Virus record (IMG/VR): IMGVR_UViG_3300042366_000454
Location: 1-35,405 of that record
Strand: one strand, 5' to 3'
Source: a virus
Lineage: Duplodnaviria > Caudoviricetes
DNA: 35,405 nt
Shown: piece after piece, positions 1,900 to 35,405 of the stretch
Layout: every line of letters begins with the position of its first letter
How positions within the stretch are numbered: the first letter of the stretch is position 1
Program-made: the position numbers and the translations under genes
The notes under the pieces: generated by a model
What the model saw: the letters and a program-made list of their open reading frames with translations, nothing else
Database searches by the model: none
What the model was told of the DNA's origin: nothing

Positions 1900-2168
1900 T
1901 GAAGCACGACGAAAAACTTGAAAAAATATTGAACAAGTTGTGCAATGAGCTTGTCGAATTTTTCGAGTCTGGCTTTGTCGTTGTTACTTACAAAGAAGCG
2001 GACGAAACTAAAAACGCCTTTATCAAATTTGGAAATGACTACACAATCGACGGCCTTATCTCCAACATCCACGACATCATGTATGGACAGGAAGAAGATG
2101 ATGAAGAAGAGGATGATGACGATGACGGCGGCGACTTAAAGAACGTCCTAAAGAAAACCCTTGAGTAA
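1899..2168 (+). CDS. hypothetical protein with acidic C-terminal tract
   Basis: ATG at 1899 overlapping upstream stop; EEDDEEEDDDDDG tract. Confidence 0.7.
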   Translation: MKHDEKLEKILNKLCNELVEFFESGFVVVTYKEADETKNAFIKFGNDYTIDGLISNIHDIMYGQEEDDEEEDDDDDGGDLKNVLKKTLE

Positions 2169-2392: not shown

Positions 2393-2412
2393 ACACAAAC
2401 AACAACACACAC

Positions 2413-3027
2413 ATGAAAATATATTGCTGTGGCCCAATGACGGGCTACCCCAACTACAACTTCCCCGCATTTTTTGCAGCGGAAGAAAAACTAAAAGAGC
2501 AAGGATTTGAAGTGGTAAATCCAGCAAGACTTGACACAGAAGCAGGATACGACCCAACCCATCCAGATTTTGTTATGGATAAAGAATTTTTAATTGGCGC
2601 GGCCAAGCGTGACCTAATGGGCGTTATTGAAGTTGACGCCATTGCGCTTCTTCCAGAGTGGGAAAAAAGCAAAGGGGCAAATGCCGAGCTTGCCGTAGCC
2701 AAGTGGCTTGGGAAGAAGATATACCTCTACCCGTCAATGGTGGAATACGACCAAGAATCAATCCTCGACAAAGCCAAGCAGATCACTTCGGGCGAGCGTC
2801 AAAAAGATTACGGCCATCCTACGGACAACTTCAGACGCATTGCCGATCTCTGGAATGTTTACTTGAACAACCGCAAGGTTGGCGGCAATATCTCTGTTGA
2901 AGACGTTGCTTGGATGATGGTATTATTGAAGATTGCCAGAGATCAGAACAAAACAACATACGACAATTTGCTGGACAGCATTGGTTATGTCAGGACACTA
3001 GCCATGATTCGCGGACTAGAAAAATAA
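2413..3027 (+). CDS. DUF4406 (nucleoside 2-deoxyribosyltransferase-like) + DUF6378 fusion
   Basis: KIYCCGPMTG..NFPAF..VVNPA..WEKSKGANAE (DUF4406) and SGERQKDYGHPTDNFRRIADLW..LLKIAR..DSIGY (DUF6378). Confidence 0.8.
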   Translation: MKIYCCGPMTGYPNYNFPAFFAAEEKLKEQGFEVVNPARLDTEAGYDPTHPDFVMDKEFLIGAAKRDLMGVIEVDAIALLPEWEKSKGANAELAVAKWLGKKIYLYPSMVEYDQESILDKAKQITSGERQKDYGHPTDNFRRIADLWNVYLNNRKVGGNISVEDVAWMMVLLKIARDQNKTTYDNLLDSIGYVRTLAMIRGLEK

Positions 3028-4905: not shown

Positions 4906-7263
4906 TTAGGAAAAAATTGAGGCGTCTAAAACTTCGGCATATACCCTTGCATAGCCATATTGATATATTTCTACTCTTGAATCAATAAGATACAAGCCAG
5001 ACCTAGGTATATCGGTTGGCCCAGAAACCGATGGGATTGATGTTGGGCCAGTCCCATTAACCTCTACTGTTTTTGTGTCGGAAACATTTACGCTTGGGAA
5101 GTTGTCTCCAAACCAACCAATTTCAAATGACGCCCCTCCTGAATAATTTTGTTCGCCCGTGTTTTCTATGGTTATTTGTCCATGAATTGATGGAGGAATT
5201 GTTATTGTTACGGTTTGTTGCCCCCTCGCATAAGAACTGCCCTTGCCCGTTGTTCTGTCAGACGAAGAGCTTGTTGGAGAAAAAGATGCAGACGCGCTTG
5301 CTGAGCCTTCTACAGAAACTCTAGCACTTTCTCCAAATGCAGCCAAAACGTGAGAGACTGGCTTAAATATTGGCCACGGCACGGTTGAACCGCCCACCTT
5401 GGTTAATATGTCTTGCAGCGTTACGGGATATGGCAAAAAGAAAAAATAACTGGTTGTTGGGATGTTGTTTGCATAAATTTCCTCCATATCCACAACGAAT
5501 GCTGGAGAAACAGACGCTTGAGAGGATGCTCTTCCGCTTTCAGACCCAGACAAAGACCCGCTCGTTCCAGATGTAAATCCCTCAAAATCACTTGAAAAGC
5601 TTGCATCGTCTTTGCTGCCGTCCCAAATGATTGAAACGGATTTCAATATTTTCGGGAGACTTAAACTTGTTCTTGTTGGAAAGGACAAAAAAACAGCGTC
5701 CAGTTCTGATTTGACAGCATCCAAATCAATTTTGCGAACAATGTCTAAATCTTCAGATAGGGGATCAACAAATGTCGCAGCAGAACCAAGCGATTGGCCA
5801 GACGGCGTTATTTTTTCTTCATAGGGAATTATTATGTTAACACTCGATTCATAATCTTGACCGAGAAGTGTTGGTAGCCCAATATTGTCTCGTGTAACAG
5901 TTGTTTTTCTTGCGGTAAATTTTGTAATCTGCTGCTCGCTTTTTTCAATTTCATTAGAGGCTAACGATGGCATGGAGACGCTGTTTTGCGCCACTGTTTC
6001 TTGTGTTGTTTTTGTTGGCACACTTGCCCTGAACTGTTCTGGCAGCACATCTGGTTTTGACGCAGAAAATGTTTTTGCAGGAAACACTTCTGGAACTTCA
6101 GTTTTTGTGACAACGTAAGTTCCGTCGCCCAACGCTTCGCTCTGTATATCTCTCGTTGCTGTTGGAATTTCGCTTGCGTCTCCATTTTGAAGGGTTTGCG
6201 TTACTGTTGCTAATTGCTTGTCACTGTCTGTTGCTTTTTGTGTTAATGTTTTCGGAAGACTCGTTATGTCTCGATTTGTTTTAGAAATGCGTTTTACGAA
6301 TTTGTTGGTTTGTTGTTCGGACTTTTCTAAATCTCCAGCATTCAATGTTGGGATTGACGCTGTTCCAGCAAGGCTTTCTTGTTCCGTTTTTGACGGAACC
6401 AATATTCTGAATTTTTCTGGAACGGGGTCTGGACGCTGTAATGAAAATGTTTTTGCCGAAAAAACTTCTGGCGCATCAACAATTCTTTCAACGATGGTTT
6501 CAGCGTCTTCTCTTTGTGCTTCTACGGTTTTTGTTGCCGTTGGCTGTGGTGGAGTATATCCACTTACCGCCTTTCTTTGCGTTGTAACGGTTACGAGTTG
6601 GCCGTCACTGTCTGTTGCTCTTCCAATTAATTGCGGGCCGCTAACCCTATATGTTTGAACAACCTTAAAAACCAAAAATTCATTATATGGCTCATATGTT
6701 GTTTGAGTGATTGTTCCGCTTATGTTTTCAAGTGTTCCAACTTCATTGCCTGTTGAAACAATAAGCTGTTTTGATTCTTGAACGGCTCCGCGAGAGGGGT
6801 CATATAAATCCCTCGTGTTAATTGGGAACGAAGGATTAGTTACAGAACCTGAACCGTCACCCCAATTTTCCTCGATCTCAAGAGAGACAATTGCCGAGCC
6901 ATCCCGCCCCTCATAGGTTCTCTTTTGGGTTGTGGCAAGGGATGCTGTTTGCCCTGTGTTGGCTACAGCACGGCGTCTGCCTTGAATTGGGCCAAGGTTT
7001 TCGTCGTAGCGGGTAAACGGAACCCAAGGGCCGGGAAGAATCTCATAAACCCACTCAACCCTTTCGTCGCTTCTGGTTGGTTGCGCTCCAGTAAACACAT
7101 GATTTGGATAGCGTGTGCTATCTGGGTGCGCGGAAAGATCGTCAGGAATCTTGTAGCTATCTACTCTTGGGTCTTTCCTTATTGATATAATTGGATAGGA
7201 TCGGTCGTTATTTGCGTATCCAGAAACGTATGATTTTCCGAGGGGTGGATATTCCGTGGCCAT
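4906..7263 (-). CDS. 785-aa Thr/Ser-rich protein with internal ~126-aa tandem repeats, putative virion/tail protein
   Basis: Long ORF with own promoter; PEVFxAKTFS..PExFR..EKSEQQ and ATDSD motifs each occur twice. Confidence 0.7.
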   Translation of the reverse strand: MATEYPPLGKSYVSGYANNDRSYPIISIRKDPRVDSYKIPDDLSAHPDSTRYPNHVFTGAQPTRSDERVEWVYEILPGPWVPFTRYDENLGPIQGRRRAVANTGQTASLATTQKRTYEGRDGSAIVSLEIEENWGDGSGSVTNPSFPINTRDLYDPSRGAVQESKQLIVSTGNEVGTLENISGTITQTTYEPYNEFLVFKVVQTYRVSGPQLIGRATDSDGQLVTVTTQRKAVSGYTPPQPTATKTVEAQREDAETIVERIVDAPEVFSAKTFSLQRPDPVPEKFRILVPSKTEQESLAGTASIPTLNAGDLEKSEQQTNKFVKRISKTNRDITSLPKTLTQKATDSDKQLATVTQTLQNGDASEIPTATRDIQSEALGDGTYVVTKTEVPEVFPAKTFSASKPDVLPEQFRASVPTKTTQETVAQNSVSMPSLASNEIEKSEQQITKFTARKTTVTRDNIGLPTLLGQDYESSVNIIIPYEEKITPSGQSLGSAATFVDPLSEDLDIVRKIDLDAVKSELDAVFLSFPTRTSLSLPKILKSVSIIWDGSKDDASFSSDFEGFTSGTSGSLSGSESGRASSQASVSPAFVVDMEEIYANNIPTTSYFFFLPYPVTLQDILTKVGGSTVPWPIFKPVSHVLAAFGESARVSVEGSASASASFSPTSSSSDRTTGKGSSYARGQQTVTITIPPSIHGQITIENTGEQNYSGGASFEIGWFGDNFPSVNVSDTKTVEVNGTGPTSIPSVSGPTDIPRSGLYLIDSRVEIYQYGYARVYAEVLDASIFS

Positions 7264-7273
7264 TTACCAAGGA

Positions 7274-7302
7274 ACCATATCTTAAAACATCTTATCAATC
7301 AA
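7274..7302 (-). promoter_or_regulatory. sigma70-type promoter for the 7263 gene
   Basis: Minus strand TTGATT-N17-TATGGT, ending 10 nt before the ATG. Confidence 0.6.
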
Positions 7303-7315
7303 GCACATTTTTTTG

Positions 7316-7343
7316 TTGCAAAGTTAAATCAACAGTGTAATAT
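7316..7343 (+). promoter_or_regulatory. sigma70-type promoter for candidate sRNA
   Basis: TTGCAA-N16-TAATAT; same geometry as TTGCAC-N16-TAACCT at 7441. Confidence 0.5.
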
Positions 7344-7349
7344 TTGTTT

Positions 7350-7415
7350 GTTGTTTTGGTTTTTTCATGGTGTGTGTTGGCGGGGTTGGGCTTAAAACCC
7401 GACCCCGCTTTTTCT
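7350..7415 (+). ncRNA. candidate trans-acting antisense sRNA (G/U-rich seed + terminator)
   Basis: Promoter, then ~30-nt GU-rich stretch containing UUUUUUCAUGGUGUGUGUUG, then an intrinsic terminator; seed is complementary to many phage start-codon regions. Confidence 0.55.
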
Positions 7416-7417
7416 TT
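7380..7417 (+). terminator. intrinsic terminator
   Basis: GCGGGGTTGGG-cttaaaa-CCCGACCCCGC, an 11-bp stem (one G:U) followed by TTTTTCTTT. Confidence 0.85.
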
Positions 7418-7440
7418 AAAAAAAGATTGAACGAATTTTC

Positions 7441-7468
7441 TTGCACCGTGTCTGTATATGCCTAACCT
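7441..7468 (+). promoter_or_regulatory. sigma70-type promoter, near-leaderless transcript
   Basis: TTGCAC-N16-TAACCT ending 8 nt before ATG 7477. Confidence 0.5.
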
Positions 7469-7476
7469 GAAATACT

Positions 7477-8151
7477 ATGGCATTCCAAAATACAAATAAC
7501 AGACCCAAAGACCCGACCCTATACCACAGCGCACTCGTCAAAGACGGCCCCAAGCTTGTCACTGTCATGGGCGCACCGAAGATGGTAAAAAACAACACAC
7601 TCTGCTTGGTAGAGCTTCTTGTTGATGGGGTTAAGCATGTCTATTGGGTTGACACACCAGAGATTAAATCTGGTTTTGAGGCAAATGTTGGGCAACAAGT
7701 CGTTCTTATGGCTTCTGGAAACAGCAAGCAAGGAACGGCGCGAATGGAGTTTCAGTTGGCCGGGGTTCCTGCCACACAGATTCCTCAACCAGCAAAAACG
7801 GTAGCGGTTGCGCCCGTGGTCTCTCAGCCCCAAACGTTCAACGTGGTTGTTCCAGCGCAACAGCCCTCTCAACAAAAATCAGATCGTGATGCAAAAACCT
7901 TCTTGTGCCAAGCGTCCAATCTTATGCGCCTTTGCGTCAAAAAGGCAAACGACATCAAGGTTGAGCTTGGTCTTTCTGACGAACATCGTCAGGGGATTGC
8001 AACCACGCTCTTTATTCAGTCTGATCGCAAGGGATTTATTGACTCCATGCCCGTAAATCCTTATACGCCAGCAGAGCTTGGTTTTGGTGCGAGTAACGCT
8101 CAAAATTTAGCGGAGGCACAGCCGTCAAATGACGAAGACGAAGCCTTCTAA
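7477..8151 (+). CDS. putative ssDNA-binding/recombination protein
   Basis: Beta-rich N-domain, P/Q linker, and acidic C-terminus ending in Phe (NDEDEAF) as in SSBs; near an exonuclease gene. Confidence 0.45.
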   Translation: MAFQNTNNRPKDPTLYHSALVKDGPKLVTVMGAPKMVKNNTLCLVELLVDGVKHVYWVDTPEIKSGFEANVGQQVVLMASGNSKQGTARMEFQLAGVPATQIPQPAKTVAVAPVVSQPQTFNVVVPAQQPSQQKSDRDAKTFLCQASNLMRLCVKKANDIKVELGLSDEHRQGIATTLFIQSDRKGFIDSMPVNPYTPAELGFGASNAQNLAEAQPSNDEDEAF

Positions 8152-11195: not shown

Positions 11196-11271
11196 GTGGC
11201 TGTAACTCAGTGGATAGAGTATCGCTCTTCTAAAGCGAGAGTCGAAGGTTCAAGTCCTTCCAGCCACGCCA
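11196..11271 (+). tRNA. tRNA-Arg(TCT)
   Basis: Acceptor GTGGCTG/CAGCCAC, anticodon arm TCGCT-CTTCTAA-AGCGA, T-arm GAAGG-TTCAAGT-CCTTC, encoded CCA; 76 nt. Confidence 0.96.
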
Positions 11272-11280
11272 AATCTTGTA

Positions 11281-11309
11281 TTGACCTAAGTATTGATTCG
11301 TGATATTTT
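11281..11309 (+). promoter_or_regulatory. sigma70-type promoter for the structural/ejection operon
   Basis: TTGACC-N17-TATTTT with extended TGn, ending 10 nt before ATG 11320. Confidence 0.55.
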
Positions 11310-11319
11310 CTTAGCGCAA

Positions 11320-13211: not shown

Positions 13212-14219
13212 ATGGCTGAAGAAATAACAGGCACTAAAATAGATTTGCCAGCTATGGCAAGACCGAGCGCACCGAGCGTTGCTGACTTGATGGTCGGAAT
13301 GCGTCCTCAATCCGGTATTACTCCGGAAGACTTGCCGGAAGATTGGGGCGGAAGACCGACAGGAACATCCCGCAGGGCTATTCGTATGCAAGCGGAATGG
13401 GACAAAAGGCGCGAAAGACAGATTCAAGAATACAACATTCAACGCCAAGCCTATGAAAACGACAGGTCTTACGGGCTTCAGGCCAGAGATCAAATGATGC
13501 AGGAGGCAAACTTTCAAAAGACACAAGAAGAAGCTGTAGCAAATCAAAAGCTAAAAGCCCAAGCAAGTCTTGAATCTGCAAACATTATATCATCCATAAA
13601 TCAATTAGACCCAAGATCGCCAGATTTTGAATCAAGCGTGGCAAAGATAATGGCACAAAATCCATTAGGCACAACCGACGAGGGGGTTCAAAAAATAGTC
13701 TCTCAATACAATTCTGCCTCCCAAATTTACAGAAGCGCAGAGCAATCCAGAACCCAATCAGAAAAAGCTGAAGCTGAAAAGCGTCAAGCTCTCAGCAAAG
13801 AGATGGCTAGAGTCGCAGAGGTTGCCGCCAGAATGGAAAAAGATAAGAGCGAATTTGTTAAATCTGTTAATGGCGTTGATGTCATTGATTATGAAGCGTT
13901 GGGTCGTGCGGAAGGACAACTCAAATTAAAAGAAGAAAAATCATTGATTGGCGGAAGACCCCAGCAAGAAATAGAATCAATCATCACTTCTATTGAGGCC
14001 GACATTGCTGAATCGGAAGCAATGGGTGACGATAACAAGGTTAGCGGATTAAGCAAAAAGCTGGAATATTACAGAAATCTTTTACCAAAGGGTGGCGGCT
14101 CTCAGGCTACTACATCAACAAACATTAGAAGCTTCGACAGCGCAGAAGAAGCCAATAATGCGGGCTTGCCAAAAGGAACAATTGTGACTATTAATGGCAA
14201 GAAGGCTCGTGTTGACTAA
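13212..14219 (+). CDS. coiled-coil protein, putative ejection protein
   Basis: E/Q/K/A-rich helices; small C-terminal domain LPKGTIVTINGKKARVD; TAATG-coupled to the giant gene. Confidence 0.5.
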   Translation: MAEEITGTKIDLPAMARPSAPSVADLMVGMRPQSGITPEDLPEDWGGRPTGTSRRAIRMQAEWDKRRERQIQEYNIQRQAYENDRSYGLQARDQMMQEANFQKTQEEAVANQKLKAQASLESANIISSINQLDPRSPDFESSVAKIMAQNPLGTTDEGVQKIVSQYNSASQIYRSAEQSRTQSEKAEAEKRQALSKEMARVAEVAARMEKDKSEFVKSVNGVDVIDYEALGRAEGQLKLKEEKSLIGGRPQQEIESIITSIEADIAESEAMGDDNKVSGLSKKLEYYRNLLPKGGGSQATTSTNIRSFDSAEEANNAGLPKGTIVTINGKKARVD

Positions 14220-17200
14220 TGGCGATTACATTTTTAGACGAAGAGGAAGATGGGGCTTCTCCAGAACAGGAGATCGGCACTAAGATTACGTTTCTGGACG
14301 AAGAGCCAGAAACTGGAGTCACGTTCATAGAGGAAGACCCGGTTCAGTCTTATTCTTCCGCTGTCAAAGAATTTAAAGACGTTCAAAAAACTTATGAATC
14401 GAACGCCGCTGCATACAATGAGTTTTCATCTTTACCACTAACTGAGGCGGACGAGCCAGAAAGATTGCGCTTGTTTGATGGCGCAAGGAATAGCGAGATA
14501 CTTTTAGATGACAAGTTGCGAAAAGTCGAAAAGCTAAGGCCAGCATATGAAGCCGTCCAAGAGCAGCGCAAGCAGGAGGAGATTGCGTCACTTAACAAGC
14601 TTTCCGAGAATCCTCTTACCGCTGGAGTTGTTGAGCCAGCATTGGCGGCAAGGGAAAAACGTGAAGCACAACTTGCAGCGTTGGCTCAAGAAAACTTGGA
14701 AGACGAAGCCTACAGTCAGAAGGCTAAAGAAATCTCTGAAGAGTATTCAAACTTTGTAAATAGCTCTATTCAGAAATCCATTAAGGATAGCGAGGAAGAA
14801 AGGCTTCTTTTGCGTGATGTGTTAAACGAAAGAAACCGAGCAAGAATGACGGGCCTTGGTCGTGTTGGCGCGGCTGAAGCTGTTGGCTCCGTGATTCTTG
14901 GAACGCGGGAAAGTCAAAACGTGGCCGACCTTGCAAGCGAGCTTGGTGAAGAATACGCAAACGAGATTTTGGGCAGAAGCGCAACCCCCAGAGATGTTGC
15001 CCGTGGTGCTGTTGCAAGATTCGTTGGTGGTGGCATTGCGGGAATCCCATCCAATGTTATTGATCTTTTTGCTGGAGGAGAAAGGGAACCTGAGTCGCTT
15101 GAAGAAGTTAGAAGACTTCAATCTCTTGTTGATGGTGGAGACGCTTCGGTTGCCCCACAACTTGAAGAGGCCAAGAAAAATCTACGCAAAGAAGCTTTGT
15201 TGACGGCGGTTGAGAGAATGACGCCAGAGGAAAAGTTTAAAATTCAGCGCGATTATCTTGAGTCAAAACAAAACGAGATTCTTGCAGGAGCTCCACCGGA
15301 GCGCAGACAGAGAATCATTGACGCATCCGAGCGCATTATGGATTCGTATGAAGCCTCTAGGTTTAACCCAGAAGACCCCAAGGCATACGGAGCATTATTG
15401 CCAGACGGAACAATTTATTTTACCCCCAAGGGCAAGGAAGATGTTAATTTGGCCGTTGACAAGATTGCTGACGCTGGACTGATTTCCGAAGCGAGCAAAG
15501 AAAGATATAAGAGCTACTACAACAATCTTGAGGCAGAAAGAGAACGCGCAATACGAGCCTCTGCCGTTCAAACCACAACATTCCAAAACTGGATTAAAAA
15601 CAACCCAGAATATTCAATAGAGACGGATGCTGGGGTTGAAGAGGCGATTGCGGCATTTGAGGAATCTCACAATACGCCCACGGCCAATATCGTTGACATT
15701 GTTCCGGGGCTGTTTCGCGGCATTAAAAGCTATGTAACCGACGCAACAATAGGGGCGCGGCTTTCGGCTATTGCCGCTTCTGATATAAGCGAATCAGAAA
15801 AAGCAGACCAAATGCTTGCCATCTATGCGGAGGAAACAGAAAAACTTGGAGAGCGTCCCCCAACTAGCTTTCTTGGTGGTGCTGCCGAGATCACTGGAAA
15901 CTTTGCCGCCCAAGCTTTGCCAATGATTGCTGCCAAGTTTCTTAGCTTGTTTGGCCCTACCGGAAAGACCGCTGGAAAGTTCGCCGTCCCAACAGCTAGA
16001 GCATACACGCTGGCCCATATGGGTGCGCTGTATGCTGGACAAGGTTACATTGAGGCCGTTGGACAATCCGTAAGAGAGTCCGGCTACAATTCCCTTGAAG
16101 AAATACAGGAGCAAAATCCAGAGCTTGCCGAAAGGATTAACGAGACTGGCAAACGCGCCATGATTGACGCTGCCAAGATCAGTCTTACAGAACAGATTCC
16201 GATTGAGGGTCTTGTTTCCAGTATTGGAAAGTTCGCCAAAAAGCCAACCACGTTCAAGAGAATCATGGAGGCCGTGGCACTGAATCCAGCGGCTGAAATT
16301 TCACAAGAAATATTTGCAGACGCCGCAATGCAAGCGGCACAGTCGCGTTACAGTCTGGAAAACAAAGACATCAAAATGATGAGCTTGGAGGAAATTGGCC
16401 AGATGTATCTTGGCGTTCTTCCCATTACTGGCGGAACAGCGGTTGCCGCTCGCACGGCAGACAGGGCAATGCAACGCAAGGAAGACGCCATTGCCAAACT
16501 CAACGAAGAACAGCGTAGAATTTTTGAGGCTGAGTCCGCGCTTATTGATGTTGCTGAAAGGGCAGCTAAAGACGCCGAGGCCACAGCACCCGAAACGGCC
16601 AAGGCGGTTGCAGACGAAGCGGCAAGAGCCAGACAAGAGCTTGACGCCAGAATTGGACAGACCGCAGAATCCGTTGGTGGAGAGCCAATCAGTATTCGTG
16701 CTACAGTAAGCCCAAGGAGAGAGGGCGAAACAGATCAGGAATGGCGAGCAAGGATTGAGCAGGAACGGGCAGAACAGGGCGTAACCATTCCAGAATCAAG
16801 AACGATTGCCGATGCCGTAAGGGACAAAGACACTTTTGTATTTAACGGGATGCGCGGAGCCTTGGTTAAGGACGGAGATCGCGTTTCGTTTAGACCGTTT
16901 GGAACGCAGGAATCATACGAGGTTCCTGCAAGCGAGGCACAGAACATTTCCGAGGTTGAGGGCGTTGAGTGGGTTCGCAGGGGGCAGATAAGAACCACTG
17001 TTCAAGAGGCCCCCGTTGAGGTTTCGACCGAGATTGAGGCAACACCAGTTGTCACCGAGGATGAGGCAAGCGAAGTGGCGGACGATGTTGAGGTTCCCCC
17101 GTCTCTCGTTGAAATTGAAAAGTCGCCAACGCTAAATTTCTTTGCTGATCTTTTTGATACTGGCGAATCAAGAGTTTCCCAAGAGGGCAAACGCGCAAAG

Positions 17201-20200
17201 AAGGTTTCCCAGACTCCAGAATTTTACAGGCAGGTCAGGCCAGAACAAATAGATCAAGCTCGCAAGCTTATTGACAACGCTCTCCGCATCATTGATGCTA
17301 TGGATGTAAGCGATGCCGAGAAAGATTCGCTGGCCCAAGGGTTTTTGCTACTTGATCAAGACATTGACAAATATGAACAAAATAAAGAATACCAAAGATA
17401 CAGAGCCGAAGCAGTTAGGGAGGTTCGCCCTACTGTCGAAGCTGGGCAGATCGAGCCAACTGAGACAGAAGCTCAAGCAGCAGCGCGAGAGCTTGAGCAA
17501 CGCTCCAGAGCAGAAGCAGAGCGTTTAGAGCGCGTAGCAACAGCCCGAAGAGTTGCCGCTGGCAGAGCCGCATTTGTTCCCGCTGGACAGGCCGAAGCAT
17601 TGGGCCGTGTTGCAAGAGCCGAATCCGCGCCAGACGAATTTGAATCTCTTGTTGAGCAGGGGTTCGCGGAAGAATATAAGGGTCAACAGGTTCTTACCGA
17701 AGCAGGAATTGCCGCACTCCCCGAAGCGCAGCGTCCACGGCTGTCTCCGCAAGTAAGAAAGATTCAGATTGATACAGGGGCCACAGATGCGGCAGCAGAA
17801 GCCATTTCCAAGAATCTTCGTATTGGCGTTGATCAGGTTCCGCCCAACGTAAGAATGCCCGAAGGCTGGACGCTGGAAGGTGACGTTTATATCCCTCCGG
17901 CTCCACAACAAGTTACCAAGGCTCCAGAGGCAGCTCCGACCCCCGAAGTTTCCCCCGAAGCTATCCCAGAAGTTCCAACAGAGCCAGCAAGACCTCAGCG
18001 TAGGGCCGCAATAGTAGAGCAAGCCCCAGAAGAAACGGACGATGCTGACGTTAGGGACGAGGTTCCAGCCCTTACTACATTTGATCGCCTGTTCGCGTTT
18101 GCCGAAGATTTGATAGCCGCTACTCCCGAAAAAGCGGAGAGCATTAGGAAGACCATTGCTAATATGGCGGCAAGAATAACGGCTATGACCAAGAACAGGT
18201 CTGACGATTTCAGAGACGCCGTTATCGACAAGGCGGCAGACAGGCTCAGAAGATCGCTTGAGCGTGGTGTAAAAACAATTTCGGGTGCAAGAATAATCGC
18301 GTCCGCCTTTGATGATGTTAAAAACCTTAAAAGATTTTCTGGAGAGGTTAATCAGATTGAATCCTCTATGGATGAGGATAAAGATGAGGGGGTAAAACTT
18401 GGAGACAAGCTTGACGATGGACAACTTTCCCCAGACGTTGTTGCCGCCAGAACCGACGCGGCCACAATACTTGAATCATTTACACCTCTTGAGAGGGCGG
18501 CACTTAGCGGTCTTCTCATTCAAAGAAACTTAATAGATAGAAAGCAAGCTTATGAATACCTACAAGAAGCAATCGAAGCCGGATTCACAGCCGATGACAT
18601 CAGCAACGCAATCGACGCAGCAGAACAAAAATTCAACGATGTCCAACGAGGAGTTGGAAGAACTGTTGGACGGGCTGGTGTTGCGCCGACTGGACAAGTT
18701 GCGCCGACTGAAACGAGACTCCAACAAACAGAACGCTCTGGCGTAATGGGAGAGGTGTTGTCGGAGGTTGATAAATCCGATAATCTGACACCGAATGAAA
18801 CAGCGGCCAAAGACAAGACTAATGACCCCACGCTGAACAAGATTGGCTCTTGGCGCAATACGCTACCTGAAGGGCCGTTGCGCGATCTGATTGATCTTAT
18901 CATTAGCGTAAGTCCAGACGCCGCGAATCTGGACATTAAATATGTTTCTACTTTGGATGGAAGATATGACGGACTGTATGACCCGCAGACCAACACGCTT
19001 TACATGCCACTTAATCCGACAAAGGACATTAACCTGTTGATCGGTCACGAACTTGTCCATGCAACAACTTTAAGCAAAGCAAGAGAGTTTGATAACGGAA
19101 ACCTCAACGCACTTTCGGCCAATGACCGCGCCGTATTTAACGGACTGGAGAAAATAAGACAGCGGCTTATTAGAACGATGGGTAGAGGCAACGCCAAGTT
19201 TGCTGAGATTATGCGGATTAAGAACGCCGCAGAAAGAGGATTGGCGGCAGCAGACGCAGTGGCAAATGGCGAGATTGACGGAAACCTGTATGCCCTTGTC
19301 AACATGGCTGAGTTCCTTGCCAACTCCATTGATAACGATGGATTTAAAGACGCTCTTGGCGCGGTTGACAGAAATATCCTGAACGAGATTTGGGACTTGA
19401 TTAAGAGACTCTTCACCCTTGGAGGCAAAACGCCTAATGGAGTTGACTTGGTTTGGAGATCAATCGCGCAGCTTTCTACCACAGTAGAGGGCGAAGGGGA
19501 TGTTTCCGCAGCCGCGATCACTCCCCAACAAGACAGAGGGTATCTTCTGGATGCGATTGAAAGAGGAGATTTTGATGCGGCACAAGCTTTGGCGGATGGC
19601 GGGGCAACGATAGATCGCGCCACATTCCTTCGTTCCATCCGACCAGCGGCGACCCAACGCGCAACCACAATCCACGCCCGACTTGAGAAAGATGGAATTA
19701 TCTCAAAGGATGAGTTTTCCAACGAGCGGGGTTTGGTTTACGGTGATGGGCGGGGTGCTGCGTCCCAATATTTAGGGGCGCAATCTTACGAGCCATATCC
19801 TCCAGTTGGATTTAAACCAACTTATACGGGTGATCGCGTGGCTGGCGAGGGTGCGGCGATTGACAAAAAATTCCGCACGATCCTCAATACTTTTGTTTTG
19901 AATGTAGTAGATTCCGAAACACGAGCATTCATAGTTAAGGACATTGCAAACTTGTTAGTCAATGGAGGAAGGGCGGTATTCGTTACTCGCGGCAAAGATG
20001 TTGCCACATCTAAAGCCTTGGTGTCTTTCGGGCCACTTGAAAGAATTCAAAGATCGGAAGGCAAGCTCACTTACCAAAAAGGATTTACACAGCCAGAACT
20101 AATTCAATATCTTCAAGAAACTCTTGGGGACGGATTTAATGTTCGGGCCTTGCGCGGAGGGAGTTCCAGCGATGTGCGCGCTGAAGTAATTAAGAATACT

Positions 20201-27673: not shown

Positions 27674-29274
27674 AACTTCTTATATTCTTCAAGTAATGGA
27701 ACAAGGTCTTTGATGTTTCCGCCATTGGAAACTTCTTCCGTTCTTTTCTTTAACTCAAGTCCCAAAAGCGAGCGATAAATTTTACCAATGGGCGCGGACT
27801 TGACTGATTCTGGACTAATATCAACAAGGTAGCTTTCGATTGCAGGGTTCATTCCCGCCAAAAGCATGGCTACCGATGACTGATTGGTGTGGTCAAAATC
27901 AGAATGAATCAATGATTTAACGTCCTCGTCTCCAATGATTTCCCAGTTGTATTTTTTGATCTCATCTTTGCCGTAATAAACTGCGTATGCTATGAGAGTT
28001 TTAACCGCCTCGCTTATCTCTCTCTTGCTTTCCGTAGGAACAGAGGAGTGTCCTCCGCGCATGGCAACATGCTTGTTTAGCTCGCCTATCGAAACTCCAA
28101 GCTTTGGGGCCACAGAGGAAACAACGGCATCCCTGATAATTCCCTCATCCAAATTGGAAATTGCCGCGCCGATTTGCTTTGCCGCCTTCAGCTTTTCTTC
28201 GGCGGTTTCAATCTTTCCAATCATCCCATCAGCCAGAGCGTCAATGTATCCGCTGGCGTTATTTATCAAGATTGATAAGTTGCCGCCCTCCAAAATAAAT
28301 TGGTCAGGGTCTTTGCCATCTGGAAGCGAGACGGATTTAACATCAACCCCAATAGGCGCAAGAGCGCAAAATATTTTTCTGGACGCTTCTTTGCCAGCCT
28401 TGTCTGCATCCAAGGCAAGAACAACCTCGCCGCAAAGACGCTTGATTGTCTGGCAATGATGGGTAGTAAAAGCCGTTCCAAGCGGGGCTACCACATTTTT
28501 TATTCCGTTTAAGTGACAGCGTATTGCGTCAATTTGCCCTTCAACAATTACAATTTTGCCAGAGTCGATGACTTCTCGTTTGGCTTTGTGTAATCCATAG
28601 AGGAGCCTTCCCTTGCTGAACACCTTGGAATCTGGAGAGTTGAGATACTTTGCCGCATGGTTTGCCGTGGTTCTCCCACTAAACCCACATACGTTCCCCG
28701 ATTCGTTGTGAATTGAGAACATGATTCTTTCGCGGAATTTTGGATACCCCCCATCCAAAAGCAAACCAGCCGCCTTCAAAATTTCTGGATTTCCAGAGAG
28801 CGAATAGTTTTTGGGCGCATACCCAATACCCCATTCCTCGCAAATATCTTTGGTGAATCCTCTTGCCCTTAATTGGTTTCTTGCTTCACCCCCATCTGGC
28901 CCAATTAGTTGTTCAAAGAAAAACCTTGATGCAGAATACAACGCAGACTCTATCTTTTTCCTCTGATTGGATTCCTCTGATTCCTCCTCCTCAACGGCAA
29001 TGCCTAAACGCGCACCAATCTTTTTAACCGCCTCTGGAAAACTAATGCGCTCCATGTCCATGACAAAGCGAAAGACGCCTCCGCCAACGCCGCACCCCCA
29101 ACACTTGTAAACATTCTTGTTGTCGTTGATATAGAACGAGGGGCTTTTCTCGTTGTGAAAGGGACAACACGCCACATACTGGTGGCCCCTCCGCCTTACT
29201 GGAAAATAATCCCCAGCAATTTCGGAGAGGCGCACCCGCGATGTGATGTCGTTTATTGTGGATTCTGGAATCAA
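27670..29274 (-). CDS. dnaG: DNA primase (DnaG-type)
   Basis: CPFHNEKSPSF..CWGC CHC2 finger, KYLNSP, VEGQID, LDADKAG, KDPD Toprim motifs. Confidence 0.96.
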   Translation of the reverse strand: MIPESTINDITSRVRLSEIAGDYFPVRRRGHQYVACCPFHNEKSPSFYINDNKNVYKCWGCGVGGGVFRFVMDMERISFPEAVKKIGARLGIAVEEEESEESNQRKKIESALYSASRFFFEQLIGPDGGEARNQLRARGFTKDICEEWGIGYAPKNYSLSGNPEILKAAGLLLDGGYPKFRERIMFSIHNESGNVCGFSGRTTANHAAKYLNSPDSKVFSKGRLLYGLHKAKREVIDSGKIVIVEGQIDAIRCHLNGIKNVVAPLGTAFTTHHCQTIKRLCGEVVLALDADKAGKEASRKIFCALAPIGVDVKSVSLPDGKDPDQFILEGGNLSILINNASGYIDALADGMIGKIETAEEKLKAAKQIGAAISNLDEGIIRDAVVSSVAPKLGVSIGELNKHVAMRGGHSSVPTESKREISEAVKTLIAYAVYYGKDEIKKYNWEIIGDEDVKSLIHSDFDHTNQSSVAMLLAGMNPAIESYLVDISPESVKSAPIGKIYRSLLGLELKKRTEEVSNGGNIKDLVPLLEEYKKL

Positions 29275-29459
29275 AACGACAAGGGGCTTGGGTTGCTTGG
29301 CATTTCCGAAACCAACGGAAGGACATGAATTGTCCGGTTGATTTCTTGCTTGGGGAGTGTTTTTGGTTTTTCCCCGCCCTCAATCACGATGATTGCCGCG
29401 ATTGCCGTTGCCGCAATCAAGGTTGCAGCAATCCATTTGTTTTCGTTTGGTGTTTTCAT
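29271..29459 (-). CDS. small membrane protein
   Basis: One TM segment; stop overlaps the primase ATG. Confidence 0.65.
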   Translation of the reverse strand: MKTPNENKWIAATLIAATAIAAIIVIEGGEKPKTLPKQEINRTIHVLPLVSEMPSNPSPLSF

Positions 29460-29465
29460 GGGTGT

Positions 29466-30163: not shown

Positions 30164-30362
30164 AAAGCTCCCTTTCGCGCACACCCCTCATTGCTGCAAG
30201 GGTATATTTGATTTCTCGCTTCCGCATTGGAGACTTGCGAAGCTGAAAGTCTGATTTGATTTTCTTCTCTAACGCCATGCGGATTGTTGTAATCTCCTCA
30301 AAGCCAAGGCGCAGAACGTATCCGTTTTGGGGCGGGTTGTATTTTTTGATTGTTGCTTTCAT
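30153..30362 (-). CDS. hypothetical basic protein
   Basis: CA-rich leader followed by ATGAAA. Confidence 0.65.
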   Translation of the reverse strand: MKATIKKYNPPQNGYVLRLGFEEITTIRMALEKKIKSDFQLRKSPMRKREIKYTLAAMRGVRERELYVD

Positions 30363-30408
30363 GTGTTTGTGTGTGTTAAATTTTTAGACACCGAATAGTT
30401 TCTTTTGT

Positions 30409-31214: not shown

Positions 31215-31546
31215 TGCTGCCCCCCTTCGGCTTTGGCGATTGCGGCGCGAGCCTTGGCAAATGATAACCCTTCGGCTCCGTGCCACTGGCCAGAATCTTC
31301 TTCCTCTATGGCGATACCTACCCCCTCCAGTTGGTCTACAAGCTCTTGTAGTGCATCCAAAAGCTCAGGTGCAGCGGCGACGAGTTGAGCGTTTGCGCGA
31401 GCTGTTGCTTCATCGAGCCTGTGAGCAGAATCTTTCCCACAAGCCCATGCGATATTCTCACCCTTCCATCGGATAGGGGTTGCTCCAGTGTTAGGTGCTG
31501 AAACGCGGCCAATTTCCCACGGCCCCGGAGTGTGTTGTTTATTCAT
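31211..31546 (-). CDS. conserved phage early protein (HTPGPW..ANA.L.AAAPELL family)
   Basis: Characteristic HTPGPW and ANAQLVAAAPELLDAL motifs. Confidence 0.8.
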   Translation of the reverse strand: MNKQHTPGPWEIGRVSAPNTGATPIRWKGENIAWACGKDSAHRLDEATARANAQLVAAAPELLDALQELVDQLEGVGIAIEEEDSGQWHGAEGLSFAKARAAIAKAEGGQQ

Positions 31547-31560
31547 GGTGTTTATTTTGT

Positions 31561-31899
31561 TTAGTGTGTTAATGGTTCGCTAAAATCTGATTCGTCTGAA
31601 TTGAAAATGTCCCAAGCTGCAATCCATAGGAGGCGATGCCAATTCTGTTCATCGTCCGCCAATTCACCATCATCCCATGCGCCATATTCGCTTAACTCTT
31701 TTCGGATTGTGTCTGGCGTCGGGCGATTGGTGAATCCGTCCTTGTCTGCCAATTCTTTTACGACATCCACCCAATAAGAAATAGATTCAGAGTTGTCTCC
31801 GCTATGGCAGATGTCGAGAATGGCTTCCCCTTGAATCCGAAACTCGTGGTAGTTTCCGGTTGCCCAATATGTTTTGTCTGGTTGTATTTTGTTTTTCAT
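31561..31899 (-). CDS. hypothetical acidic protein
   Basis: ACACC-ATG start at 31899; ELSEYGAWDDGEL..RLLWIAA. Confidence 0.7.
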   Translation of the reverse strand: MKNKIQPDKTYWATGNYHEFRIQGEAILDICHSGDNSESISYWVDVVKELADKDGFTNRPTPDTIRKELSEYGAWDDGELADDEQNWHRLLWIAAWDIFNSDESDFSEPLTH

Positions 31900-32072
31900 G
31901 GTGTTTGTGTTTTTGTTTTGCAAATTTCTACTAGCATTTGCTGCGTGATTCTCGTTCCGCAACGGGCGACAAATTCAATTTCTACATTAGGAAAATCGGG
32001 GCTTGTAACTCTTTTGCCGTCGAACAAAACCGCAACAGATTCTCCCGCAATATTTAATACTATATTATTCAT
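31896..32072 (-). CDS. hypothetical protein
   Basis: Overlaps both neighbours in coupled fashion. Confidence 0.55.
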   Translation of the reverse strand: MNNIVLNIAGESVAVLFDGKRVTSPDFPNVEIEFVARCGTRITQQMLVEICKTKTQTP

Positions 32073-32628
32073 TGTTTCCACTCATTGTTTTCCAGATCAA
32101 AAGATCGGCGTCCGCTAACGATAGGTTGGGAAACGACCGCGATATAAATTTTAACGCGAGCTTTTGCAAATCATCGTATCGTTTTCCAGATGGTGTAGAT
32201 TTTGGCGTTTTGACTCCATGAACCTCCCTCATCCATCGCAATATATGGGTGTCCAATACTGCTCCAACATGATTGGGGCGCGAGTGGAGTAGAAACATAT
32301 TGGCGGTTTTGTATCCAATGCCATGAACTTTTAGCAAGTCTCCCATCGTGCAAGTGCGAAGATTCAATTTCATTACACCAAGAATGGCGGGAACAATTCT
32401 GCGATATTGACCAACCTTCCAAAAGCGAAGATGATCTTCCAACAGGATGCGTTTTAGATATTGAAATGGCGTTTCGTTTGTTTCGGATTCGCGCAAAACG
32501 TTGCCAATGAGATTGGCGGTTTGTGCTGCATTTTTTCCTGCTACCGCAATGGAGAAAAGCATAAAAGCTTCTAACTCTGAATCGGTGCGATTATAGTTTG
32601 TTATTTCTTTTGGGTTAATCGTTGTCAT
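32065..32628 (-). CDS. HhH DNA glycosylase/lyase-like protein (Ogg-like)
   Basis: LLKVHGIGYKTANMFL HhH with Lys, AVLDTHILR with Asp, C-terminal ADLLIW. Confidence 0.8.
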   Translation of the reverse strand: MTTINPKEITNYNRTDSELEAFMLFSIAVAGKNAAQTANLIGNVLRESETNETPFQYLKRILLEDHLRFWKVGQYRRIVPAILGVMKLNLRTCTMGDLLKVHGIGYKTANMFLLHSRPNHVGAVLDTHILRWMREVHGVKTPKSTPSGKRYDDLQKLALKFISRSFPNLSLADADLLIWKTMSGNNE

Positions 32629-32638
32629 GGTGTGTGTG

Positions 32639-32651
32639 TATATACGGATTG
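32639..32651 (-). promoter_or_regulatory. repeated upstream motif CAATCCGTATATA, copy 1
   Basis: 10 nt upstream of ATG 32628. Confidence 0.65.
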
Positions 32652-32676: not shown

Positions 32677-32883
32677 TTACCGAGTGTCGCCACCAAGAGT
32701 AGCAAGGCTGATCGACGTTAATACGCTGTTTGATTCCCCATCATACAAATCTTCCCAAACGTGTTTGACCATATACACATCCGAGTTGTTGCTATGGCGA
32801 TAGTTTATTTCTACATCTTTTGGATCAACTCCATGCTGATCACACATCTTTTGTATTTTGTTTATTAGTTTTTGGGCGTTCAT
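32677..32883 (-). CDS. hypothetical protein
   Basis: ACACACC-ATG start; preceded by the repeated motif. Confidence 0.7.
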   Translation of the reverse strand: MNAQKLINKIQKMCDQHGVDPKDVEINYRHSNNSDVYMVKHVWEDLYDGESNSVLTSISLATLGGDTR

Positions 32884-32893
32884 GGTGTGTATG

Positions 32894-32906: not shown

Positions 32907-33206
32907 TTATTTTACTCTGATAGAAACGTAGTGATAAAGCTCGCTTGCATCATCTGATAATTCATCATCATCTTCATGTTCCGTTTCTGGAATGTCCGAT
33001 TTATCTGACAATTCGTTTTCAATGTGCTCGCAGTCCCAATCATCCATCGACGCATCATTGAGCGCATCTTCTAAAGCCTCAAATGGCGTATCTCCAATTC
33101 CTGTATAAACCGATTCGTATTCTGTGAAGGCAGTCCCGCATCCACTAAAGAATTGCGAGTGCTCAACTCCGTGGTCGATGATTTGATATTTGCTAATTGT
33201 TTTCAT
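32907..33206 (-). CDS. very acidic hypothetical protein
   Basis: D/E-rich; CA-rich leader. Confidence 0.7.
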   Translation of the reverse strand: MKTISKYQIIDHGVEHSQFFSGCGTAFTEYESVYTGIGDTPFEALEDALNDASMDDWDCEHIENELSDKSDIPETEHEDDDELSDDASELYHYVSIRVK

Positions 33207-33236
33207 TGTGTTTATGTGTGTGTTGTTTGTTTTGTT

Positions 33237-33449
33237 TTATTGATTAACGGATAATTTCATTTTGTTGGCGAGACTTTCCACGCATTCCATGTTGGCGGTC
33301 ATTCTCTCGAAAAACGTCCGATAATCCTCCTCATTCGGTGGGTAATTATTACCCACACCTATAAGATACTCTCTCCAATCTTGTTCAATTTGAGAAAGAA
33401 CTTGCAAGACGTAATCTCCGTTCATGTTGTTGTTCGTTGAATTTTTCAT
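33237..33449 (-). CDS. hypothetical protein
   Basis: CA-rich leader followed by ATGAAAAA. Confidence 0.65.
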   Translation of the reverse strand: MKNSTNNNMNGDYVLQVLSQIEQDWREYLIGVGNNYPPNEEDYRTFFERMTANMECVESLANKMKLSVNQ

Positions 33450-33469
33450 GGGTTTGTGTGTTTTGTTGA

Positions 33470-33982
33470 TTAAGCAAAGTTGCCATTTTCAAGATATTCT
33501 GGATCATTCATAATAATACATTCTTCAATTACCTCGTCACTCATTTGATACTCGTATTCATCGCGCAACATTTTCAGATGTTGCTCCAGCATTGAGTGAA
33601 GAAAATCATCTTCTATTTCTTCTTTCTCGTTGTCCAGTTTGTAGGTTGCAAGCTCGCCATATTCATCTTTTTCAGCATTAGCCATAAATTCTTCCATCGT
33701 TTTGCGATAATGATTGGCTTCCGCCCATGTTGAGCATTTGTCGCCGTGGTCTGATAGGATTTTATTAGCGGTAAAATCTGCCGATTCTGTGAAATGTCCC
33801 TTGATCGTCCCGCGATAGGTGTCAAACTCTGTAATTTTGATGCCGATATTTTCCGCATCTTCATAAGTAAACTCCCACCATTGATAATCTAGTGCAGTTT
33901 CACGCCACTTATCACGCGCACGCTCCTTTGCCTTGTCGCTTAATTCTTTATAGCTGTATATGTTGATTGTCATTGTTTTCAT
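33470..33982 (-). CDS. conserved acidic phage early protein
   Basis: IYSYKELSDKAKERA..LRDEYEYQMSDE..EYLENG pattern common in phage early regions. Confidence 0.75.
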   Translation of the reverse strand: MKTMTINIYSYKELSDKAKERARDKWRETALDYQWWEFTYEDAENIGIKITEFDTYRGTIKGHFTESADFTANKILSDHGDKCSTWAEANHYRKTMEEFMANAEKDEYGELATYKLDNEKEEIEDDFLHSMLEQHLKMLRDEYEYQMSDEVIEECIIMNDPEYLENGNFA

Positions 33983-33987
33983 GGTGT

Positions 33988-34119
33988 TTATTTACTTTCT
34001 TTCTTGAATAGTTTTATGGCTTCTTTCTTTGTCGTGTAGTAGTAGGTTTTTTGCACGCGATGTCCGCCGATAATGTCAGAGACAACCCATGCGCCGTGGA
34101 TGTTTTTATTGATGCTCAT
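33988..34119 (-). CDS. 43-aa hypothetical protein
   Basis: MSINKNIHGAWVVSDIIGGHRVQKTYYYTTKKEAIKLFKKESK; preceded by the repeated motif. Confidence 0.65.
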   Translation of the reverse strand: MSINKNIHGAWVVSDIIGGHRVQKTYYYTTKKEAIKLFKKESK

Positions 34120-34140: not shown

Positions 34141-34515
34141 AAAAGATGAGACGATGATACCGCCATCAAACTCAATCAATGCTCCATTATCATTTATATA
34201 CTCTTTGATTTTGTCGTCGGGAATCTCATCATCATTATCTGATAATTCGTCTTTGTCTGGCATATATTCGTCGCACAATTCTTCTTTGGCTTTATCTTCA
34301 CCACCGAAATAATCGGTTGCCCATTCTTGCAAGCTAGAATATTCTGAAAAATCGCACCGAATAGCAACCCTATCAAATTCCATTTCTTCTCCGGTGTCAG
34401 ACTCCCATTCTTCAAGATATTCAGCTATTGCCAAGGCTCCGGCCCATGACCAATTTGCGTTGTTGTCATTTTTCAATTCGTTTGCAATATCGTGTGTTGT
34501 TAGTGTTTTTTTCAT
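34138..34515 (-). CDS. conserved acidic phage early protein
   Basis: YLEEWESDTGEEMEFDRVAIRCDFSEY motif; D/E-rich. Confidence 0.75.
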   Translation of the reverse strand: MKKTLTTHDIANELKNDNNANWSWAGALAIAEYLEEWESDTGEEMEFDRVAIRCDFSEYSSLQEWATDYFGGEDKAKEELCDEYMPDKDELSDNDDEIPDDKIKEYINDNGALIEFDGGIIVSSF

Positions 34516-34538
34516 AGTGTGGTTATTGGTTGAGTTAA

Positions 34539-34551: not shown

Positions 34552-34571
34552 TTTTTATTGGTATTAGTTTA

Positions 34572-34779: not shown

Positions 34780-34959
34780 TTATTTATTCTGTAAAGATTG
34801 ACACAGATAACCCGACCAATAAGCTCTGACAATCGGGGCGGTAAATTCACTCGCAACCGACTTTAATGCCTTTGCCTTGTTTTCTGGATGCGGGAACTTT
34901 CCGCTTTCCATCCCCTTGTTAAATGCTGATTTTATCGTCATATGTCTTTTGGTTTTCAT
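34780..34959 (-). CDS. 59-aa hypothetical protein
   Basis: Read from DNA: MKTKRHMTIKSAFNKGMESGKFPHPENKAKALKSVASEFTAPIVRAYWSGYLCQSLQNK. Confidence 0.6.
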   Translation of the reverse strand: MKTKRHMTIKSAFNKGMESGKFPHPENKAKALKSVASEFTAPIVRAYWSGYLCQSLQNK

Positions 34960-34965
34960 AGCGTT

Positions 34966-35051: not shown

Positions 35052-35336
35052 TTAGTAATAAGAGCGTGCGGGAATTAGGCTTTTTGCTTTTTCTTTCCAA
35101 GTAGAAAATTCGTCGCTTTCCAACTCAAACTTTGCTGCGATTCTGCATAGCCTTTCGCTTTCAATGCCGACAACTACGCCTTGCAACACTTTGGAAAAGC
35201 GTCTTTCCTTTTCGCGTTCAATTAAGCGATGCTCGCATTTATCAAAGTTTGTATAACACGTTAGGCACGTTCCCACGCGAAAGACAGAATTTTGCTCTGG
35301 CGTGACGATGTTCATTTTCAACATTTGATTTTTCAT
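35052..35336 (-). CDS. hypothetical protein
   Basis: 94-aa ORF with CA-rich leader; CxxC..C..H. Confidence 0.65.
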   Translation of the reverse strand: MKNQMLKMNIVTPEQNSVFRVGTCLTCYTNFDKCEHRLIEREKERRFSKVLQGVVVGIESERLCRIAAKFELESDEFSTWKEKAKSLIPARSYY

Positions 35337-35405
35337 AGTGTTTGTTGGTTGATTGTTTGCGGGATTGTCTCCCCTGCTCCCCGCGACAATCGCGCCACGG
35401 GGAGA

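Follow-up and report, generated by a model that had tools for sequence, protein, structure and literature searches.

An uncultured tailed phage apparently carries a real, conserved and so far undescribed small-RNA gene, and the open U/G-rich seed of the predicted small RNA (sRNA) pairs preferentially, across the AUG, with the start regions of a cluster of small genes in the same phage. The window, that is, the whole stretch of 35,405 nucleotides analyzed here (IMG/VR record IMGVR_UViG_3300042366_000454), is half of the phage genome (complete relatives measure 68–73 kb). It is very probable, judging from the sequence, that the element at 7316–7417 is a real plus-strand RNA gene, and its conservation, the strand specificity of its structure and the unconserved ORF opposite to it strongly support a stand-alone sRNA gene on that strand. 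The pairing recurs, more weakly, in six relatives.

Results

A promoter, an open seed and a terminator between divergent genes

The window encodes a holin, an endolysin, two exonucleases, a tRNA-Arg, a 3458-aa protein, methyltransferases and a primase, together with ~20 small genes of mostly unknown function that cluster at 29.3–35.4 kb on the minus strand and that we presume, from position and gene type only, to be early genes. A second record (G001), in which the protein adjoining the element is identical, overlaps the first ~21 kb of the window and reaches 28 kb further upstream. The 3458-aa protein (14219–24595, plus strand), which is without a PHROG match and whose positional counterpart in relatives is 2700–3000 aa long, is probably an ejection or virion protein.

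A preliminary description of this DNA had placed the promoter TTGCAA-N16-TAATAT and an intrinsic terminator between divergent genes, with no plus-strand gene in the 3.5 kb upstream. Both statements hold: the motifs are present in the sequence as described (Table 1), and the nearest likely plus-strand gene upstream ends at 3796. The two hexamers, 16 nt apart, match the sigma-70 consensus at only 8 of 12 bases, because of which our promoter scan did not flag the site. In the fold of 7350–7418 (−24.4 kcal/mol, z −3.3), residues 7350–7378 are unpaired, and the terminator hairpin, with 12 pairs between 7379 and 7409, is followed by TTTTCTTT. The seed consists of a U-rich arm facing codons 2–4, the triplet CAU (7366–7368) facing the AUG, and a GG(UG)n arm facing the CA-rich leader. 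A trans-encoded sRNA is expected to be intergenic, with a promoter and an intrinsic terminator of its own, as found here with the motifs in 63 of 63 loci (see below), and to have a conserved single-stranded seed that is partly complementary to several distant mRNAs, as found here by computation. The element overlaps no conserved gene and its predicted targets lie elsewhere, which sets it apart from cis-antisense RNAs of the OOP type.

Table 1 Features of the element, its surroundings and its predicted target start regions (energies are those of the computed seed duplexes, in kcal/mol; "in register" means CAU on AUG)
Feature	Position	Strand	Remarks
−35-like hexamer TTGCAA of the predicted sRNA promoter	7316..7321	+	TTGCA invariant in 31/31 aligned units
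−10-like hexamer TAATAT	7338..7343	+	relatives mostly TG-n-TAGATT/TAAGTT/TAGGTT
Predicted small RNA, ~65 nt	7350..7417	+	start placed by prediction 6–7 nt after the −10 box
Unpaired seed	7350..7378	+	by fold; mean unpaired probability 0.87 around CAU
Intrinsic-terminator-like hairpin and U-tract	7379..7417	+	12 pairs; stems replaced but paired in relatives
14-codon antisense ORF	7324..7368	−	judged not a gene
Divergent promoter-like site TTGATT-N17-TATGGT	7274..7302	−	10 nt before the AUG of the 785-aa gene 4906–7263
TTGAAC-N16-TGTC, candidate middle promoter of the 224-aa gene	7427..7452	+	7 motif copies in L064 vs 0.26 expected
Neighboring 224-aa gene	7477..8151	+	used for collecting relatives
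Start of gene 32065–32628 (8-oxoguanine glycosylase-like)	32615..32637	−	−23.5, in register
Start of gene 32677–32883	32870..32892	−	−26.1, in register
Start of gene 31561–31899	31885..31911	−	−25.3, in register
Start of gene 33237–33449	33437..33462	−	−24.7, in register
Start of gene 29271–29459	29446..29465	−	−23.9, in register
Start of gene 35052–35336	35324..35347	−	−23.7, in register
Start of gene 34138–34515	34504..34525	−	−22.5, in register
Start of gene 30153–30362	30352..30378	−	−20.7, in register; behind TTGAAC-type promoter motif
Start of gene 31211–31546	31533..31556	−	−20.5, in register
Start of gene 34780–34959	34945..34964	−	−20.0, in register
Start of gene 33470–33982	33968..33992	−	−19.6, in register
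Start of gene 32907–33206	33197..33225	−	−22.6, best duplex not in AUG register
Start of gene 2413–3027, outside the cluster	2403..2422	+	−21.6, in register

The reading that the preliminary description had held against an sRNA, namely that the segment is merely the start of a minus-strand ORF of 14 aa, fails on conservation. The ORF does exist in the sequence; in relatives, however, it ranges from 3 to more than 100 codons, or its ATG is absent. Because of this range of lengths, we conclude that it is no peptide gene: frame, length and sequence are not conserved as they should be in a minus-strand small protein, and we rejected the ORF as a gene.

The 224-aa protein encoded downstream gave only weak matches to OB-fold and single-stranded DNA-binding proteins (best E 0.009, none at or below 0.001) and is possibly a single-stranded DNA-binding protein. 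It is specific to the family; its N-terminal part is a beta domain, two conserved helices form a pair, and its tail is acidic. On the other side of the element, the 785-aa gene would yield a near-leaderless transcript from its promoter-like site, an arrangement that recurs in G005, G007 and G009.

The unit is present in all relatives collected

The relatives are 63 IMG/VR loci with a gene for a protein related to the 224-aa neighbor (43–100% identity); a repeat scan of the viral collection with protein alignment gave the identical 63 contigs. The expectation that related phages carry the same promoter-seed-terminator unit was borne out in 63 of 63 loci (62 by script, with L060 checked separately). 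Its anatomy comprises TTGCA, a TAxxxT-like box ~16–17 nt further on, often a small 5′ hairpin, a UUUU-CAU-GUGUGUG seed, a strong hairpin and a pyrimidine run, and a profile search found one copy per record searched. Of 42 metagenome loci, many of which duplicate the first set, the 30 that have upstream sequence were inspected, and the unit was visible in these. A pattern scan of the collection returned 65 loci, 34 of them on new contigs, of which two are family members and the others lack the terminator. In the loci examined the unit always stands between the same two divergent genes, and the collection-wide pattern scan gave no other context, a fixed position that partly follows from how the loci were collected. 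When cultured phages were searched with the unit by blastn, only weak terminator-like matches were obtained.

In L037 and L059 the unit lies 0.6–1 kb upstream of the relative of the 224-aa gene, with inserted coding sequence between the two. Such extra coding sequence stands beside the unit at ~7380–7900 in L037 and ~6480–7280 in L059, and upstream of it in L017, L027, L046 and L048, so that it is found on either side with the unit undisrupted; we read these inserts as endonuclease-like.

Among the aligned units, the promoter spacer is free to vary while the hexamers and the seed are kept. The terminator stems are wholly different between clades yet always paired, and folding is better on the plus strand in 44 of 44 distinct RNA versions. 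In 28 versions, 161 G-U pairs were counted on the plus strand vs 26 on the minus strand, an excess that fixes the polarity more than it proves function, because a G/U-rich strand has more chances for G-U. In the main clade (an alignment of 17 sequences, with L037 and L023 left out), 356 of 356 cells pair, with A-U/G-U/G-C exchanges; this evidence for the structure is modest, as only two pairs changed on both sides and 14–16 of 500 shuffles reach the score. RNAalifold found zero consensus pairs in a 31-sequence MAFFT alignment, because the stems are replaced wholesale between clades, and the structure was judged from per-sequence folds and the 17-sequence clade alignment.

Within the seed, CAU stands directly 5′ of the UG tract in 40 of 44 versions, and 32–38 of those 40 have U at positions −1 to −4. 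CAU is absent in four of the 44 and in L260, and a stem takes up part of it in the L045 clade. Only the UG tract is present in all units, the coding-side arm being more variable, and the only non-U/G sequence well kept in the open seed is the CA of CAU. In the nearest relative, L002 (87% identity in the neighboring protein), CAU-(UG)n is kept and the coding-side arm does not mirror AUG-AAA. The feature conserved family-wide is the (UG)n anti-leader tract, to which CAU over the AUG would be a usual, non-universal refinement. The seed sequence changes fast between close relatives. Two CAU-centered seed-like segments stand in tandem in L042 (9853–9979), L044 (9839–9968), L058 (9818–9958) and L250 (upstream of 803), which suggests seed duplication.

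The seed pairs preferentially with start regions of the small-gene cluster

The preliminary description had listed six perfect matches to the seed that span an AUG, and all are exact, at the positions and lengths given (13, 13, 12, 12, 10 and 10 nt). Outside the element, the window holds 15 matches of at least 10 nt, nine of which lie at or beside a start codon; the four longest (12–13 nt) all span the AUG of genes in the small-gene cluster. The string ACACCATGA occurs six times (the element and five starts) vs 0.28 expected. Most of the predicted targets have no obvious Shine-Dalgarno motif.

We computed duplexes against −20 to +15 around starts called by a simple gene-calling script; the energies ignore target accessibility, and most strong sites are in weakly folded regions. 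The median was −19.7 kcal/mol for 20 cluster starts (from 29.2 kb) vs −11.1 for 77 other starts drawn from the window and G001 (p 4e-4), and 1089 non-start ATGs gave −10.4. The cluster mean of −17.0 was reached by 0/1000 fully shuffled seeds, by 1/1000 when CAU was held in place, and by 2/1000 when, in addition, each side was shuffled separately, so base order counts, beyond G/U richness. The comparison with shuffled seeds and other starts that had been proposed as a check therefore came out in favor of the cluster, and the preferential pairing across its AUG codons holds in this phage.

On a separate list of 20 cluster starts curated by hand, CAU falls on the AUG in 14, among them all but one of the 12 strongest duplexes (−19.6 or better). 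The AUG register alone discriminates poorly, because roughly half or more of the weak duplexes formed with other genes have it too. Strong sites are also predicted in non-cluster genes (8604, 9950 and 2413); the non-early starts at 8604 (−20.0) and 9950 (−20.2) are as strong as early ones.

Some further sites named at the outset need qualification. The 15/16 match at 29459 is obtained only with a one-base bulge. Of the looser matches, that at 33206 gives a strong duplex, out of the AUG register, and that at 34775 proved weak (−13.6). The starts at 30362, 29459 and 2413 form in-register duplexes, but they are probably middle rather than early genes, because they lie behind phage-type promoter motifs; 30362 starts 22 nt after such a motif, which differs from the sRNA promoter. 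Starts of structural genes had been said to lack the context, and they do share only the AUG in register, yet 13212 still reaches −16.7 through a CA-rich leader.

Two repeats were noticed in the cluster. One, AATCCGTATATA, recurs shortly upstream of five cluster genes (34968–34979, 34539–34550, 34128–34139, 32894–32905 and 32639–32650, minus strand) and did not appear repeatedly in six other records that were scanned for it; it may be peculiar to this phage, as part of a promoter or as a signal at the RNA level. The other consists of three head-to-tail copies of CTGATAAA-like 9-mers at 34566–34600 (minus strand), just upstream of gene 34515.

Pairing is weaker in relatives and seeds are largely interchangeable

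In seven of seven genomes, the resident seed favors the same-strand gene cluster located upstream of the primase gene (AUC 0.63–0.82, p 0.03 to <1e-5). These genomes are related, three of them share one seed, and for G009 and G011 the limits of the cluster were drawn manually. In most genomes, the cluster is enriched in AUG-AAAA starts and in CA-rich leaders (AUG-AAAA in G009: 9/19 cluster starts vs 5/68 others); G011 shows neither, and G003 shows AUG-AAAA only.

The seed of the window was the best of those tested on its own cluster (−18.0 vs −11.1 for other genes). With equal 16-nt cores, the G005 seed scored −16.8 on the cluster of the window vs −15.4 on its own; on the genes of G009, three of the foreign seeds tested did better than the G009 seed; that of G003 hardly had a preference (−6.9 for its own cluster vs −6.5); and a clear preference was absent for the G015-type core. 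In most relatives the seed reads CAU-GU, although no pair precedes the cluster AUGs more often than CC (in some cases it ties for first place), so these seeds need a bulge. The GG of the seed in this phage exactly fits its own CC-AUG starts, which are found in 7 of 19 cluster genes.

We therefore rejected clean seed–leader co-evolution, for which co-variation had been put forward as a check: the seeds are largely interchangeable, and co-evolution with the leaders of the phage itself is not clearly supported. The seed mirrors a start signal that is common to the phage family and that may be set by the host. Of the initial reading as an sRNA directed against start codons, the predicted RNA gene and the computed AUG-spanning pairing in this phage stand, with weaker pairing in the six relatives and no clean co-variation of seed and leader.

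A candidate middle promoter and genes that may escape

A conserved bipartite motif, TTGAAC-N16/17-(T/G)GTC, is present in 3–12 copies per record (G001, G003, G005–G007, G009 and G012), often 7–11 nt before an AUG and mostly at replication-type genes. Its sites in the window are 7427–7452 (+), 30387–30412 (−) and 1929–1955 (+), and the 20-kb piece L064 has 7 copies vs 0.26 expected. We regard the motif as a candidate phage-specific middle promoter that would give near-leaderless mRNAs. A 109-aa HTH protein with a weak match to sigma-70 region 4 is encoded at 14838–15164 of L072. In one clade (16 of the 63 loci), a TTGAAC-type motif is nested within the sRNA promoter, which fits sRNA expression continuing past the early phase.

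Sigma-70-like sites stand 9–12 nt before the AUG of structural-region genes at 7274–7302 (−) and 11282–11310 (+) of the window, and also in G005, G007 and G009, suggesting near-leaderless late transcripts. A tRNA-Arg(UCU) gene (11196–11271, plus strand) directly precedes the promoter-like site of gene 11320.

Leadered genes account for 65 of 119 cluster genes and 171 of 456 others (p 8e-4) in six genomes. The top 15% of duplexes per genome include 33 of those 65 leadered cluster genes, 23 of the 171 leadered genes outside the cluster and one of 53 that are near-leaderless, and the scarcity of the last class is partly built in, because a missing leader leaves less sequence for pairing.

Searches for hosts, related phages and known RNAs

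A relative of the 224-aa neighboring protein was not found in GTDB contigs, and the seed-plus-hairpin pattern matched five unrelated genomes, all without the unit. Cultured phages yielded no close relative: they gave no match for the 224-aa neighbor or for a 406-aa virion-region protein of G001, the primase (~30%) and an exonuclease (54%) matched Flavobacterium phages, and further matches were weak; the protein atlas returned viral or generic clusters only. We found 15 matches to CACACMCATGAAAA in 13 of 201 genomes of one candidate host phylum vs 8 control matches; these genomes were drawn around G016, a Bacteroidetes MAG, and their phylum is only a candidate, so the scarcity of CACACMCATGAAAA says little. 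The host might be a member of the Verrucomicrobiota, a guess based on leader and promoter style. Two members of this phylum are listed as poor Shine-Dalgarno users in the accessible part of one source (PMC10783764).

At the gathering level, Rfam recognizes only the tRNA in the window; loose thresholds give weak, unrelated matches, none to GcvB. Membership of the GcvB family was rejected, as a covariance-model match is absent. Full-text searches of openly available papers, judged by titles and the opening of abstracts, turned up neither this RNA nor a class-wide anti-start-codon phage RNA. The motif was not found in the accessible part of the supplements to a survey of candidate structured RNAs in viruses (PMC10690425), a survey that could include this RNA.

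Discussion

We lean, by no great distance, towards the view that the element encodes a stand-alone phage sRNA, GcvB-like but unrelated, which blocks the CA-rich initiation regions of presumed early genes and spares middle and late genes that are near-leaderless. Host RNA polymerase would transcribe the RNA from the TTGCA-N16-TAxxxT site, and the product, 60–85 nt across the family and ~65 nt here, would accumulate over time, a build-up that would provide a delay. The open U/G-rich seed would cover the CA-rich leader, the AUG and the first codons of about a dozen presumed early genes and a few middle ones, and the duplexes would block ribosome loading, so that the gene set would be shut off together. 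A chaperone is perhaps dispensable, because the duplexes are long (computed −20 to −26 kcal/mol, ~15–22 bp), and many middle and structural genes may escape because a promoter motif of their own lies just 7–12 nt before the start or because the preceding gene is directly adjacent. The proposal builds on the observed layout, one-copy conservation, plus polarity and computed pairing, to which it adds transcription, timing, repression and chaperone independence as predictions.

The RNA could be real and yet have been selected against mRNAs of the host or of competing phages that bear the same CA-rich AUG-AAA start, the early genes of the phage having copied the strongest signal of the host. Seeds that are nearly interchangeable between genomes and untuned to their own leaders would be expected on this account, as would the sparing of near-leaderless phage genes; a host-type promoter means that the RNA could appear from the first minutes; the CACACAC-AUG-AAAA start is also found in unrelated viral contigs; and the lambda RNA PreS acts mainly on host mRNAs according to the accessible part of its report (10.1101/2024.10.31.621285). 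We nevertheless consider it unlikely, given the rarity of CACACMCATGAAAA in the 201 genomes of one candidate phylum, for what it is worth, and the exact fit of the seed GG to the CC-AUG starts of this phage. Likewise unlikely, in our estimate, is a switch of translation mode, in which the RNA would block leadered CA-rich AUG-AAA starts both on host mRNAs and on the early genes of the phage, and near-leaderless or coupled middle and late starts would escape; if true, host shut-off and developmental timing would be achieved by one 65-base RNA directed against a non-Shine-Dalgarno start signal.

If, by contrast, the (UG)n tract alone silenced CA-rich translation enhancers in the manner of GcvB, with the cover of the AUG incidental, the universality of the UG tract and the loss or partial burial of CAU in some versions would be natural, and GcvB is indeed described as acting on ACA enhancers at variable distances from the AUG (PMC3879156, accessible part). 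It is quite unlikely, though, that this is the whole account: CA is the sole well-kept non-U/G sequence of the seed, U is kept 5′ of CAU, shuffles that preserve CAU and the composition of each side still pair worse, and in most genomes, such as G009 though not G011, AUG-AAAA starts are overrepresented in the cluster. A role in cis or in protein binding, as a leader or attenuator of the putative single-stranded DNA-binding gene, as an R-loop or primer RNA, or as a (UG)n decoy titrating an RNA-binding protein, would suit the constant position between the same two genes and the fast change of the seed among close relatives; we find it decidedly improbable, since the position owes something to the way the loci were collected, a separate TTGAAC-type promoter motif serves the downstream gene from beyond the terminator, as far as the sequence shows, inserted coding sequence parts the unit from this gene in L037 and L059, and both the anti-AUG character and the order-specific match to cluster starts would be left unexplained. 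Finally, the segment might hold no functional RNA and be a minus-strand micro-ORF start, or a stray early leader, beside a terminator that stops read-through from the lysis genes. The minus strand does read as a perfect cluster-type start with 14 codons behind it, but the ORF is unconserved, the U-tract and the G-U pairs of the hairpin are on the plus strand, the promoter scan found zero minus-strand sites in 6800–8000, and termination of read-through has no need of a plus-strand promoter motif at a fixed distance or of the extra 5′ hairpin seen in most relatives, all of which makes this very improbable.

Comparisons with known systems refer to the accessible parts of the sources cited. The enterobacterial sRNA GcvB pairs through its G/U-rich R1 seed with CA-rich elements in or near ribosome-binding regions (PMC3879156), and the predicted phage RNA, for which the pairing is computed, resembles it as a trans-acting RNA with many targets whose conserved G/U-rich seed is unstructured and directed against CA-rich, ACA-containing sequences. 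It differs from GcvB in being without a sequence or Rfam match, in being phage-encoded and 60–85 nt long, and in a seed that usually sets CAU over the AUG and extends an arm into codons 2–4; GcvB works with Hfq, whereas an Hfq gene was not found in three of three near-complete phage relatives. SviR is likewise a conserved trans-acting sRNA of a mobile element, lowers the translation of several lytic-phage mRNAs and is reported to be independent of Hfq and ProQ (10.1101/2022.04.08.487710); it is, however, a weapon of the PLE satellite against its helper phage, whereas the phage here would regulate a class of its own genes (homology was compared via Rfam only). Lambda OOP and aQ are short RNAs with which the phage represses genes of its developmental program (PMC12197685), but they are encoded in cis with a single overlapping target, while the present RNA, 22–28 kb from the predicted cluster, would act in trans on many. 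PreS of lambda and VpdS of VP882 are phage-encoded sRNAs that favor lytic growth through host and phage mRNAs (10.1101/2024.10.31.621285; PMC12197685). Unlike the RNA predicted here, both are Hfq-dependent RNAs of temperate phages, the effects of PreS fall mainly on host mRNAs, and neither is described in those parts as the mirror of a start-codon motif shared by a whole class of phage genes.

The shut-off of early, often toxic, genes of lytic phages is usually credited to proteins. Phage sRNAs with known targets are few and mostly from temperate phages or satellites, and their role in lytic phages is unclear in the accessible parts of recent accounts (PMC8244752; 10.1101/2022.04.08.487710). 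The repression predicted here is testable without culturing the phage. A family-wide RNA that mirrors the start codon and its surroundings would give phage development an RNA timer and would hint at a CA-rich initiation signal that can be blocked.
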